A stretch of 64,000 nt of DNA from Octopus vulgaris (lineage: Eukaryota). This document shows, one piece after another, positions 5,583-56,410 of this stretch (position 1 is the first letter of the stretch; each line of letters starts with the position of its first letter). Under the pieces are notes generated by a model. It did no database searches. It was not told where the DNA came from and saw only the letters and a list, made by a program, of their open reading frames with translations. The position numbers and the translations under genes are program-made. Location: assembly GCA_951406725.2 (NCBI GenBank), contig OX597837.1, forward strand, positions 37,882,001 to 37,946,000, in the 5' to 3' direction.

Positions 5583-5606
5583 TGTAAGTATGTATGTATG
5601 TATGGT

Positions 5607-5910
5607 GTAAAGATTGTTTGCCAACATAATATGGCAGTCCTGGTTTAGGACGAATGTTGCTGTAATTTAGCCCCAGGAGACATCGTCTCCAGCTGGTTAT
5701 AAGGCATGATCTGTATCCTTACATTTTTTTTAGAAAATATAAGGACACTGATCATGTCGTATAGCCAGCTGGAGACGATGTGTCCTCGGGCTAAATTACA
5801 GCAACATTCGTCCTAAACCAGGACTGCCATGTTATGTTGGCAATCTTTACTCCAAAGTACTGTTGCTGAATATCTCTCGTTGTGAGATTCACAACTAGTA
5901 ATTTTCTAAA
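5607..5910. mobile_element. Approx. 245-bp palindrome (5607-5850) plus one-sided tail, within (TATG)n
   Basis: Arms gtaaagattg..tcctta / taagga..caatctttac are near-perfect reverse complements; related to 18846-18965 and 49617-49742. Confidence 0.8.
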
Positions 5911-13629: not shown

Positions 13630-14490
13630 GTGGAAGTACGACTATACATTACGTGTGTTTATTTGGCAAGGAAAAAATATGACCGTCCTGAAATATAACA
13701 AAGTCTGTTTCAACTCACGATTTTACACCAGGAATCTTGCGAAACGAATTCATACACGTAAAAATTAAAATTATAATTATCGCACGTAATCTATATTTTC
13801 TGATATTAGCTATGATGGCACAACTATATTTTCAAAATTAGCCATCATGTGATGGGTAACACTTTAGTGTATGTATAATACCTTTTTGATGACTAAACAG
13901 AAGAGGGGGATGCACGTGGGATAGAAGGGTCGCTGAAGAGGTCACAGGTGTCAGACGAAAGATTTCCAGACAATGGACATGAGATAAAATGAGAATAATA
14001 ATATATATTTCTTTACTACCCACAAGGGGCTAAACACAGAGGGGACAAACAAGGACAGACAAAGCGATTAAGTTGATTCCATCGACCCCAGTGCGTAACT
14101 GGTACTTAATTTATCGACACCGAAAGGATGAAAGGCAAAGTCGACCTCGGCGGAATTTGAACTCAGAATGTAACGGCAGACGAAATACGGCTTCGCATTT
14201 CGCCCGGCGTGCCAACGTTTCTGCCAGTGAAACTACGACTATACAGTGCGTGTGTTTATTTGGCAAGGAAAAAATATGACCGTCCCGAAATATAACAAAA
14301 TGTGTTTCAACACACGATTTCACATCAATAATCTTGCAAGACAAATTCATACACGTCACAATTTAAATTATAACCATTGTATGTAATCTGTATTTGCTGA
14401 GATTAGCCATGATGGTACAAGTATGCTTCTAGACTTATCCATCACACGAAAAGTACAAATTTAGTATGTGTATAATACCATTTTGGTAAA
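13630..14490. repeat. Diverged local duplication (13630-13890 vs 14230-14490), each copy preceded by SINE-B (second at 14005-14227)
   Basis: cgtgtgtttatttggcaaggaaaaaatatgaccgtcc occurs twice; weaker relative at 9200-9300. Confidence 0.8.

Positions 14491-18809: not shown

Positions 18810-18810
<1 letters not shown>
18689..18810. mobile_element. Family G structured repeat (inverse of 7963-8073)
   Basis: Reverse-complement near identity. Confidence 0.7.
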
Positions 18811-18845
<35 letters not shown>

Positions 18846-18848
<3 letters not shown>

Positions 18849-19160
18849 TGTGAAGTATATTTGCCATCTAAATATGGCTAACCACTAAGGGTGGATGTTA
18901 CTGTAGCTTGTAGCCCCAGGAGAACGTCTTCTCCAGCTGGGTATTGACACACTTTCTGTGCCCTATCGGTATTTGCAAAGGGAGGTCATCCTTCCCTAGT
19001 CAACCTAAGTGATACGCACGGATTGCAGTTTCTGGGTATTGACCCGTCATCAGCGCACGACAATCACCGGTTTTCGATGGAAGGGTCCCAATGCAAATAC
19101 ATATATCCTTTTCCCAGTGACTTTTCGTCACTGATCTTGAAAAAGTGTCAACAAACAATA
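18846..19160 (-). mobile_element. pLTR-like element: hammerhead (19016-19058) followed by four-hairpin module, in (TA)n
   Basis: Minus strand gtgcg-CTGATGA-c gggt caat accc a-GAAA-ctgcaa-TC-cgtgc; enclosed by gtatttgca/tgcaaatac. Confidence 0.7.
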
Positions 19161-19207
19161 TATAAACGTATAGGTGTGTATACATACAGGTATGTATACA
19201 TTCACGT

Positions 19208-37361: not shown

Positions 37362-37730
37362 GGCGGCGAGCTGGTAGAATCGTTAGCACGCCGGGCGAAA
37401 TGCTTATCGGTATTTCGTCTGCCGCTACGTTCTGAGTTCAAATTCCGCCGAGGTCGACTTTGCTTTTCATCCTTTCGGGGTCGATTAAATAAGTACCAGG
37501 TACTGGGGTCGATCTAATCGACTTAATCCCTTTGTCTGTCCTTGTTTGTTCCCTCTATGTTTAGCCCCTTGTGGGTAGTAACAGAAATAGGTATTTCATC
37601 CGTCTATACGTTGTGAGTTCAAATTCCGCGGAGGTTGTCTTTGCCTTTCATCCTTTCGAGGTCAATAACCCAAGTACGTGTTAACCCTTCCCCTGAACTG
37701 ACTGGCCTTGGGCCAAAATTTGCAATCAAT
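37362..37730 (+). mobile_element. SINE-B dimer
   Basis: Head plus headless second unit. Confidence 0.9.
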
Positions 37731-41529: not shown

Positions 41530-41972
41530 CTGTTTACTGTAGTTGATATTCCGTATAGTGAATCTCATACCGCCAAAGGCGCATTCAAGCGCCAGTTGAT
41601 GTATACCTCGTGAGCTTCATGGAGCTTCATGGATCATTTCACACTCTCTCAAGATCGAAATGAGACAACCAGTGTAACATGAGGTGGTTTTGCATGTTGT
41701 GACGATACCTCACTTGCTGAATATATAGGGGATCGGCAATAAGGTCACTGATGTAGGTCGTCCAGTGTTTCTCTTCCGTTGTGTCCCGTTTTTTGTCAAT
41801 TTGCCTATGGCCTATGTATTTAGGTAGATAATAAAAATCGGAGTGCACTTCGTCGGTGCCCAGCTGGGGAGAGTGTTTCCTCCATTCATCTTTTGATGTT
41901 TTATTTCGCTGGTTTATAGAAAGGCCTTCTTGAGTTTAGCTGATGATGCATTGGTTTTAACTCAATATAAAT
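41530..41972 (-). pseudogene. Penelope-like element reverse transcriptase remnant
   Basis: Across frameshifts: SKDEW..FYYLPK(IH)..GRP(I)ISD..DSLY, matching the PLE motif order FYxLPKIHK / GRPIIS / DxxSLY. Confidence 0.65.
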
Positions 41973-41975
41973 ATA

Positions 41976-42015
41976 CTATACTGATGAGGTCTACTAGACC
42001 GAAACAGGTCCATAA
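41976..42015 (+). ncRNA. Hammerhead motif in probable inverted pLTR
   Basis: CTGATGA-ggtct act agacc-GAAA-cagg-TC; stem I degenerate. Confidence 0.65.
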
Positions 42016-42584
42016 TTGTCCCCTATGCCTGAATACAAAAGTCAAGCTGTTTCATAATCTTGTAAATTAACTGATAAATTTTTAATTTTTAGAAATTATC
42101 TCCCCTGTTCTGTTTCTAACAACTGTTGTTAGGGTTTCATTTGTTCTTTGCGTTTTTTTTTCTACAACTAAAACGTACATATCAATTAATTTATCGACAC
42201 CAAAAGGATGAAAGGCAAAGTCGACCTCAGCGATATACATATTATATAATACATGATATATATAATAACATCAGGCTAGCATACCAGGGGATAGTATATA
42301 TATTCCTATACTTTAAGTACTTAAATATTCATTTAACTGTAGGTACTTTACTCACATATACACCGACACATAGAAAACTACGCGCATATACACAGAGATG
42401 TACACACACACACACATATACATATATATGCACATATATACACTCATATATTTTTTATACATACATATATATATATATATAAGGCATATATTTATGAACA
42501 CACGTATATATATATTCACATATAATCATATATATATATATATACACACATATATACATGTATATGTATATATATGTATGCATG

Positions 42585-43181: not shown

Positions 43182-43619
43182 GTGTGTGTGTGTGTGTGCG
43201 TGTATATATATATATATATTTATACACACATATGCATACGCACTCTCACACATACGTGCTTGCATGCATACTTATAGTTATATATATACATAGACATACA
43301 TATATACCCATACACGCACGCGCACACATACACACACTTGAATACACTATACATGTCCATGTGTGTGAGTGTGTATGCGCATGATGCGTATATATATATA
43401 TGTGTCTATATATATATATATATATAAATATATACATATATATACTCATATATGTGTGTGTGTGTGTGTCTGTACGTATCTATGTACATATGTATGTATG
43501 AGTGTGTGTGTGTATGTATGTATATATTGAAGCATGTATATAGAATGTACATATGTATATATGCATGAGTGTATGCATGTGTGTATACGTAAACGCACAC
43601 ACACAGACACACATATATG

Positions 43620-43840
43620 GTTCAAAATTGCACAAAACGAACAATATAAAGCAAAATACAATCCACAGGTGAAGGAACGAAAACAAGGTGTTAATTGTCT
43701 GACACTTAGGAAAAATGGGAGAAATGTTTGACGTTTCGAGCCTAAGCTCTTCAGCAGAAAGGAATGAGGAAAGGAAACGGATGGAGGAAGAGGGCGGTGG
43801 GGGAAGAAACGGAATGAAAACGTTTTTGGAGTAACAGCTG
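43620..43840 (-). mobile_element. Family E diverged copy with hammerhead-like motif (43726-43761)
   Basis: ttt-CTGCTGA-A-gagc ttag gctc-GAAA-cg-TC-aaa. Confidence 0.65.
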
Positions 43841-43875
43841 CATATATATGTATATATGTGCGTGTGTATGTATGT

Positions 43876-49616: not shown

Positions 49617-49622
<6 letters not shown>

Positions 49623-49742
49623 GTTGTATACTGTCAATCTAACACGAACGTGACAGTAGGGGGTACACCACCGCTGTTTAGCCCTAGGAAGCATCGACGC
49701 CTCCTGATGGCTTTGACACACTTTTCCTGTGTCCATGTGTCC
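49617..49742 (-). mobile_element. Four-hairpin module element in (TA)n
   Basis: Shares gctgt..tagccc..ggag/ctcc..ggct..gacaca layout with 18860-18965. Confidence 0.6.
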
Positions 49743-52907: not shown

Positions 52908-53932
52908 ATATATATATATACAAAGGGAGAGAGAGAGAGAGAGAGAGTTGTCGGTATAGGCCAGCAGAACTTCCGAAGAGTAATAGGTTTTATTTTAGAT
53001 GTTCCAGTTTTGGGCAACCCTCTGTGCTGCTAAATCTGCCATGAAGGTGAAGAACAACTGCGTGACTAAAACGTTTGTCTTCCAAGCACGATGTTATTTA
53101 AGTCGATCTCACTACGCGGCATCTTGGATAAGTGTCTTTCTTATAGAACTTCGGGGACCAACGAAGCCCCCCCACCTCATGAAGGAAATTTCAGTAGAAT
53201 GAGGCTCATCGAAAGAAAGAAGGAAGGAAAATTGAGATCGTCCCGGTTACTATTAATCCGTCGTCTCTATAAATACCACCACCGCTAGTGCTCGATCGCA
53301 AGGTGCCTTTAGTGAAATTTACACTATTGCAGACATTTGACTTTGTTCTTTAGGACTTCCATCTTGAAAGAGATGGTGTTGTTGTTGTTTCGCCCTAGGT
53401 TAATCCAATTAGAGCAGATCTATAACCACAGGTGTTCCGTCATTTTCTTATGCGTGAAAATAAATTAAATAAACCGGCAGCACACTATGCGATATTTACT
53501 TTCCTTCTTGTTTTTTGTTAAGGCGATGGCTTATGAATAATTTGAAGATTATTTGGTTGCTATGTCTAGCAGATCGTGCTATAGGCTCCCTTTTGGGTTT
53601 GATACCGTGTTGCTGTTGAGCAGATTTTGATGAAAGGCACTTTGAACCGTGGCCATTTTGTAAATTTCTTCAGTGCAGGGAATATAAGATATCAGTAGCC
53701 ATCTTCTACATTTGTATACTAGTAGTGGGGTTCCTCCAAAGCACCTCTGCAGGCGCGTTAAATGATAGGCTGCGTATCTCGAAGATCAGAGAGTCTCTTC
53801 CGGGCTATAAGAAATGTTTTGCCGTATGAAAATTCGAGTAAGAAATTTCGTTTTAAATTACTCACTCACATTTTTTCCTTAGATATTTGACACTGAAAAA
53901 AACCCCCTGCTTATTTAACGCTTTTATAAACC

Positions 53933-55845: not shown

Positions 55846-56410
55846 TAAAACAAGCAGCAGGAGACGGAGAGGCGGGGGTTGGGGGGGGGTAAACCAAGAA
55901 CGAAGTGGTTAGAAAATATCCGTAGTCGCAGTGGGTCACGCTTGGAAGTCCAGTCAGAGGGTGTAATAATGATTGCATGAGGCAAGATCTTGTGCCTGAG
56001 GACTCTGCCTTCACGACTTTCTCAGAAACAGTGGAAGGTGAAGTAGAAGGCTGCTATTTCTTGATGGTCAAGTGACCTCATTGGTTCCAGGTATAGTTGT
56101 TGTTGTGGTTGTGGAGTATGGATTAATAGAGTGATATTGTTGTTTCGCCCTAGGTCAGCCCGGATCAAGCAGAACAACGATCAAAAGAGTTCCAGTCATG
56201 ACCAACACGCCCTTTTAGACATACTTATCACACCAATGTGTCATTTCGATATTTAAGGTTTTTGGCTGTTATTTCTGGCAATACGAGCGTCCATGTGAAA
56301 GCACATTCAACACTCTGTCGATATCTCATAGTGGTTGCTTAAACAGTTTTCAAATCCCGTCGTTTCAGGATCGCGCCTAGTGTACCGCTACACTCGATAT
56401 GTAGTCTTCC

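Follow-up and report, generated by a model that had tools for sequence, protein, structure and literature searches.

A hairpin series behind a hammerhead in Octopus vulgaris repeats, a probable reverse transcription signal of Penelope-like elements

Results

The analysed stretch of Octopus vulgaris DNA (64 kb, hereafter the window) consists of microsatellite-rich animal DNA and contains four copies of a short repeat built around a module of hairpins (Table 1). The elements read, from 5' to 3' on the minus strand, hammerhead, H5, H4, H3, H2, H1 and tail. The module is probably the 3' part of the pseudo-LTR (pLTR) of a Penelope-like element (PLE), where it would, by analogy with a purified PLE system, act as the binding and start signal of the reverse transcriptase (RT). 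The likely sources are PLEs or short derivatives borrowing their enzyme. The original prediction had proposed a conserved RNA structure with a role in RT recognition or priming and had not recognised the arrangement, which as a whole is that of a typical Penelope-like terminal repeat. An RT role is supported by the context (hammerhead polarity, the G-U state of H4 on the minus strand, compensatory variants, microsatellites at the 3' ends and the results on the Poseidon element), from which we infer the role itself. The class is known and the element ordinary, and the conserved fold is apparently undescribed.

Table 1. Coordinates of the copies, their parts and related elements in the window.
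Feature	Position	Strand	Description
Copy 1a	5604-5730	minus	module only; 3' end passes into (TACA)n, then (TA)n
Copy 1b	5733-5853	plus	head-to-head inverted partner of copy 1a
One-sided 57-bp extension	5854-5910	plus	between copy 1b and a (GTAT)n tract
(TA)n tract	18810-18846	none	adjoins 3' end of copy 2
Copy 2	18847-19160	minus	longest, 314 bp; TA-rich simple repeats flank both sides
3' stretch of copy 2	18847-18862	minus	G-free, A/C/U-rich
H1	18863-18878	minus	5 bp; last hairpin
H2	18882-18894	minus	4 bp; other copies have a positional counterpart without sequence identity
H3	18912-18942	minus	two-tier: outer stem of 4 bp and inner stem of 5-7 bp, separated by a 4x3 internal loop
H4	18946-18962	minus	6 bp; second pair G-U in copy 2, G-C or A-U in family variants
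H5, extra hairpin	18980-18996	minus	between hammerhead and module; copy 2 only
Type I hammerhead	19009-19067	minus	core 19053-19047 and 19032-19029; copy 2 only
Hammerhead motif	41700-42110	plus	core 41981-42004
Second hammerhead-bearing stub	43330-43860	minus	core 43754-43734; TA-rich repeats on both sides
Copy 3	49619-49742	minus	module only, the most diverged of the copies; each side flanked by (TA)n

Copies and their ends

All three elements of the original prediction were present, and a fourth, copy 1b, had been missed. Copies 1a and 1b form a palindrome of 87.5% likeness across 256 columns, and a head-to-head inverted, 5'-truncated partner of this kind was present at one of the three loci. 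The extension behind copy 1b is possibly a PLE tail, possibly plain flank. Three of the four copies are module-only stubs lacking the hammerhead.

At all three loci the copies stop 13-19 nt past H1, directly at (TA)n or (TACA)n. The 3' ends of all three independent loci adjoin such an array, as against 3.6% of non-array positions, and three of the four copies end at TA-type microsatellites. The copies lack poly(A), and an AT-rich or microsatellite target was confirmed. The 3' stretch had no G in copies 2, 1a and 3 (0 of 16, 19 and 13 nt, respectively) and one in copy 1b (1 of 15); in copy 2, reverse transcription is presumed to start here.

No ORF of 90 aa was present on the sense strand of copy 2, none of the four copies (each at most 314 bp) contained an ORF, and by eye no ORF continued through the module. 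None of the copies is associated with an RT or endonuclease ORF, so that the case for PLE parentage is built on non-coding hallmarks.

Hairpin series

The stems were found where the original prediction had located them, and 76 of the 85 tabulated pairs of the three copies were Watson-Crick (the 85 including six of H5 in copy 2). The best conserved part of the module is H3. Its outer stem, carrying private mismatches, had a pairing probability of 0.00-0.02 in copies 2 and 1a. H4 had been described by a gaca/tgtc form, which belongs to copy 1b; in copy 1a (5615-5722), to which it was ascribed, H4 is broken, with two of four pairs Watson-Crick and a pairing probability of 0.00. H2, as anticipated, was weak in the third element (probability 0.02 on the minus strand of copy 3). 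All of its pairs differ between the copies, and it is possibly a positional analogue.

Two-sided changes between the copies outside H2 were only three, at positions 5 and 6 of the inner H3 stem and at one H1 pair. What RNAalifold recovered from the unadjusted alignment was limited to H3, part of H1 and an alternative stem of 3 bp, and two-sided changes affected 2 of the 13 pairs. H1, H3 and H4 are mostly conserved in sequence rather than covarying, and the covariation claimed originally was in this respect overstated, although compensatory changes do exist in the public contigs described below. The hairpin loops vary between the copies in length and sequence, while the H3 internal loop and the ACAG linker, both unpaired, are kept in all of them. 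No loop-loop pseudoknot was seen by eye. At 18896-18914 and its counterparts, the 3' arm of the outer H3 stem is able to pair instead with the linker behind it in all four copies, possibly a two-state fold.

Homology of the copies

Homology is clear between copies 1a (5604-5730) and 2 (18847-18972), which share 72% across about 100 columns (BLAST E 5e-8 to 2e-7). It is weaker for copy 3, which has 74% in common with copy 2 across 57 columns (BLAST E 0.08-0.2), though the flank context is shared; the common descent on which the original prediction depended was upheld to this extent. Pairwise local scores of four copy pairs, picked after the fact, were equalled or exceeded by dinucleotide shuffles in 0, 0, 0 and 4 of 5000 cases; for copy 3, the score against copy 2 was above all 5000 shuffles and the score against copy 1a above 4996 of them. 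A profile of copies 1a and 2 did not recover copy 3 at E ≤ 10; profiles of 1a and 3 and of 2 and 3 recovered copies 2 and 1a at E 8.6e-10 and 1.1e-5, respectively.

A four-stem descriptor based on structure only gave, in 128 kb comprising both strands, four matches on the minus strand (copies 1a, 2 and 3 and the head of an unrelated repeat at 14176-14208) and none on the plus strand. It had no matches in 1000 shuffles of each copy, and copy 1b failed it. Because the descriptor was modelled on these copies, it demonstrates non-chance stems, not homology. The repeat whose head meets the descriptor is abundant, and we take it to be SINE-like.

Because covariance model R1 took its structure from a misregistered alignment, it is mostly a sequence model; it detected no further copy in the window, where the four training copies scored 100-137 bits and the next match 10.8. 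Short repeat ends at 53386-53399 and 56141-56154 have 14 nt in common that resemble the H3 exit of copy 3 and precede A/C-rich runs; neither end is matched by the covariance model. The exact H3 pattern had no matches in viral and metagenome contigs. A looser pattern, with no viral, three metagenome and four prokaryote genome matches, was dismissed as chance; six of these seven lay inside ORFs of at least 150 aa, none was near (TA)n, the best model score was 19 bits and Rfam gave none. Bacterial promoters and terminators were scanned for and none were found.

The family in public contigs

Contigs of four public runs (X1, X2, X4 and X6) were aligned to 18847-19160 at 80% likeness. The contigs fitted numbered 4951, 126, 2786 and 3436 in the four runs, which indicates a very abundant family, depth not being a copy number. 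The summed depth peaks over H1-H2, is about 10- to 25-fold lower at the hammerhead core (from 1.17e6 to 1.04e5 in X1, 1.58e6 to 1.14e5 in X6, 3.6e5 to 1.5e4 in X4 and 2767 to 120 in X2) and lower still beyond it. Such a gradient is as expected from copying that begins at the 18847 end and stops early, and it is confounded by divergence under the 80% filter, which contributes to it.

The outer H3 stem is complete with the letter that most of the family carries at 18941 (99%), as are stem III and the GUC cleavage site of the hammerhead with the majority letter at 19023 (94-99.8%), which makes copy 2 a decayed member of the family. The H3 pair 18923/18930 changes from A-U to G-C, the two sides at equal depth in X2 (322 and 322 of 584); the side whose change by itself would leave G-U on the minus strand is at least as common in all four runs. 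Both changes stand on one stretch in a loose-end consensus of X4 (14 contigs). The H4 pair 18947/18961 occurs as G-U, G-C (12-20%) and A-U (6-27%). In H5, variants at 18984 and 18992 each create a Watson-Crick pair, and one pair is seen both as A-U and as G-C.

Among the 40 of 80 variants listed, 24 were at unpaired and 16 at paired sites. Ten of the latter keep or make the pair alone (expected 3.7-6.8), with P between 1e-4 and 0.03 depending on the transition bias, which is not an R-scape test; counting listed partner changes, the number rises to 12. The four that break the pair even with listed partners are at 18924, 18929, 18995 and 19058, the first two being the loop-closing pair of H3, and two of the 16 are merely private mutations of copy 2. 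H1 and H2, with 18 stem positions between them, were free of listed variants at these positions. Three adjacent variants (18965-18967), located in the linker that separates H4 from H5, shift together at equal depth (10-21%).

Loose ends past 18848 were common to 47-55 contigs of three runs, with an agreement of about 0.5. Before 18848, about 13 letters common to X1, X4 and X6 extend the 3' end, and the junction together with these letters repeats 10 letters of the 5' arm of hammerhead stem I (19055-19064); this end may be a tail, a tandem continuation or a consensus artefact. A record of roughly 1270 nt has the module at one end in X1, X4 and X6. Behind 18909, H1-H2 is joined to other sequence in all four runs (70, 3, 33 and 42 contigs). 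By eye this sequence resembles the abundant SINE-like repeat of the window (14130-14210 and 37400-37470), and the joint is possibly that of a chimeric family.

Strand of the structure

The nine pairs outside the Watson-Crick class comprise four G-U and five mismatches on the minus strand and three G-U and six mismatches on the plus strand, so that the three copies alone show almost no strand asymmetry. The original observation that A-C on plus becomes G-U on minus holds for the majority state of H4 and for two inner H3 pairs of copy 3, but is near-absent overall among the 85 pairs. Nor does the single-side pairing test fix the strand, since the plus strand passes it as well (12 of 16). The minus assignment comes from the polarity of the hammerhead, the wobbles of H4 and stem I, the two inner H3 pairs of copy 3 and the lower folding z-scores of the minus strand (minus/plus in the three copies -3.35/-2.29, -1.48/-0.69 and -2.31/-0.88).

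Hammerheads

The hammerhead that had been reported at 19016-19058 is real and lies on the minus strand, although copy 2 is mutant at 19023 against 94-99.8% of the contig depth. It has a 4-bp stem II with a mismatch at the base and a 2-bp stem III with a palindromic loop, and the predicted cut is after 19021, 174 nt from the 3' end. Paired changes at 19025/19026 keep the loop palindromic, with depths that match in three runs (31995/32013 in X1, 2575/2590 in X4 and 15964/16208 in X6; 30/58 in X2). A type I hammerhead with a palindromic loop III, here within the terminal repeat of copy 2, is a hallmark of PLEs. Upstream of it, a perfect 7-8-bp hairpin is present at 19117-19136 on the minus strand.

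The stub at 43330-43860 has a U-rich downstream part without the module and represents a different PLE-like family. Upstream of the 41981-42004 core there is what looks like an inverted, decayed coding remnant. Further matches resembling hammerhead cores are at 1928-1951 and 13933-13960 on the plus and 37137-37119 on the minus strand, the first of these having a palindromic stretch like stem III and being followed by a 14-bp tandem repeat at 1987-2038.

Discussion

Relation to known Penelope-like elements

Endonuclease-bearing PLEs are diagnosed by an ORF for a telomerase-like RT with a GIY-YIG endonuclease, flanked by direct pLTRs. Hallmarks of PLEs include the inverted 5'-truncated partner and an optional one-sided tail of 30-40 bp (available text of PMC8557442). 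Their hammerheads sit in the pLTR and need dimers (PMC4209133, in part), and pLTRs suffice in cis (PMC3846280, in part). The only purified PLE system is Poseidon of Anolis carolinensis, for which the consulted parts of PMC11167929 (Frangieh et al. 2024) report that the RT needs RNA from +20 to +172, that the hammerhead cuts at +26 and its cleavage is dispensable, and that reverse transcription begins within the RNA, at +111-118 in an AC-rich stem-loop, the genomic ends coinciding with these starts. Like Poseidon as described there, the octopus element has a hammerhead followed by about 150-175 nt ending in an AC-rich region that marks the insertion ends, AT-rich targets and possibly an optional tail. 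The module fills the same slot as the RNA required by the Poseidon RT, and from this position we infer an RT binding and start signal. In the same source the Poseidon segment is coding (the first 172 nt of the ORF) with one stem-loop named, whereas the octopus module is a non-coding series of four to five hairpins, found across diverged families at (TA)n tracts.

The following course of events is proposed. A transcript would carry the hammerhead, H5 and the module. Two hammerheads would dimerise by way of their palindromic loops and cut 174 nt before the 3' end; by the Poseidon result, this presumed cleavage would not be needed for insertion. The RT-endonuclease would then, by analogy, bind the hairpins, most likely H3, and nick a (TA)n tract, with cDNA beginning in the G-free stretch 13-19 nt past H1. 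Synthesis would usually stop after 120-150 nt, leaving module-only stubs and sometimes a head-to-head pair; the stubs, the pair and the depth gradient are observed, and this is their presumed cause. The fold would be selected in a few source elements and not in dead copies, and compensatory changes would for that reason show up as subfamily variants.

For the driver, the Hydra clade of PLEs with a C-terminal endonuclease is our best guess, given its (TA)n targets and similar hammerhead build. The clade is delimited by RT phylogeny, DKT/RWK motifs and the lack of CCHH. Insertion into (TA)n with a canonical hammerhead agrees with this clade, though the trait is not unique to it. The available text of PMC8557442 (Craig et al. 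2021) gives for the clade (TA)n targets with hammerheads, presence in octopus, and a hammerhead near the 3' end with a 4-bp stem II often mismatched at the base. Four Hydra consensuses (a coral, two sea cucumbers and a copepod) have, as judged by eye from the accessible portion, a two-tier hairpin with a changing inner stem close to one end. In contrast, the octopus consensus Hydra-1_Obim ends about 30 nt after the hammerhead, without the module (PMC8557442, in part). This consensus and the hammerhead element of the window with its core at 43754 both lack the module, which is consequently not general to PLEs. No sequence match was found between the motifs of the module and the Hydra and Naiad termini in the part of the PMC8557442 supplement at hand. 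The Naiad PLEs of cephalopods resemble the octopus repeats in (TA)n preference and inverted partners but are without canonical hammerheads, and by eye four cephalopod 3' ends (Obim, Ovul, Adux and the record preceding Adux) are without the module (PMC8557442, in part). The 3' arm of H3 resembles the 5' ends of two Naiad consensuses, a similarity that was rejected, one match per 10-mer in 584,000 characters being near chance and the stretch in Naiad being protein-coding.

A bolder proposal sees in the module an RNA element that has been deeply conserved among the (TA)n-targeting PLEs of marine invertebrates, as their counterpart of the RT-binding domains of telomerase RNA. The two-tier hairpin would dock the enzyme, the terminal hairpin would position the G-free A/C-rich template, and even a circular RNA without ends could be copied into microsatellites, possibly extending these by repeated template copying. 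This proposal is considered decidedly unlikely.

Alternative explanations

It is conceivable, though rather unlikely, that the repeats stem from a non-LTR retrozyme, with a unit of about 325 nt whose circular, hammerhead-processed RNA would be copied in trans by a PLE enzyme, the hairpins mainly stabilising the circle or helping to ligate it instead of binding the RT. The size and the lack of an ORF fit, since non-LTR retrozymes are PLE-derived units of about 300 nt without an ORF (PMC7229834 and bioRxiv 10.64898/2026.07.22.740005, both in part), in the latter source derived from pLTRs, and the canonical metazoan type I hammerhead with a 4-bp stem II, short stem III and palindromic loop is typical of them (PMC4209133 and PMC7229834, in part). 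In X4 and X6 the loose ends also run on, by eye, into 8 AT-rich letters identical to those at the 5' start of copy 2. The agreement of these loose ends is, however, only about 0.5, and among the 15 of 17 joints listed none links the 3' end to the 5' start. Retrozymes are defined by tandem units and circular RNAs (PMC7229834, in part), whereas the octopus repeats are dispersed, mostly 5'-truncated stubs; no tandem unit is present in the 64-kb window, and three of the four copies are without the hammerhead. The explanation overlaps with a Penelope-type RT signal, as a circle would also need an internal RT start.

RTs of LINEs recognise 3' stem-loops and yield 5'-truncated copies, and some LINEs target microsatellites, such as Tx1, R4/Dong and RTE. 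That the module is the stem-loop tail of such a LINE, or of a SINE using one, with the hammerhead as a passenger, is judged improbable. The joining of H1-H2 to other sequence behind 18909 in four of four runs and the descriptor match at 14176-14208 would agree with it, but poly(A), tRNA similarity and Pol III A and B boxes on either strand are lacking, and a palindromic-loop hammerhead 174 nt from the end together with a head-to-head partner are PLE traits. Less probable again is that the stems serve another step, either as 5' UTR or promoter for the tandem ORF that follows or, at the DNA level, as hairpins that the endonuclease reads. pLTRs do include the 5' UTR and promoter, the Penelope endonuclease needed tail sequence (as cited in the part of PMC11167929 available), and most pairs are Watson-Crick on both strands. 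Pairs that are A-C on plus and G-U on minus nevertheless suit a single-stranded RNA of one polarity and not a cruciform, and the insertion ends lie at a fixed short distance after H1. The second catalytic RNA suggested by the original prediction, self-cleaving or ligating, is very improbable. Such a ribozyme would fit a compact structure adjoining the hammerhead with its H3 internal loop and ACAG linker kept in all copies, but the loops vary freely, the stems form a simple linear series without a pseudoknot discernible by eye, and no Rfam family reached gathering score in the whole window. Rfam matches of the whole window at E ≤ 5 were dominated by microsatellites against miRNA models, and 18845-19165 gave only one E = 3 lncRNA fragment at E ≤ 10; the sensitivity of this negative is limited, as Rfam also missed the hammerhead itself.

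Significance

The literature covered, to which subscription papers mostly do not belong, contained no description of a fold of several hairpins that is conserved downstream of the hammerhead in PLEs. Repbase, Dfam or the repeat library of O. vulgaris may well list the family already, under PLE, SINE or unknown repeats.

The RTs of PLEs are the closest relatives of telomerase. On the RNA feature that they recognise, the one in vitro study yielded a region of 150 nt and an AC-rich start, without a conserved fold. With its natural compensatory variants, a fold shared by three diverged families points to the pairs that could be broken and rescued in such an assay. PLEs are reported at 6.83% in O. 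vulgaris (available part of the PMC13282606 supplement), and a Penelope-type RT signal would, if true, account for one class of the very abundant short repeats in this type of genome.
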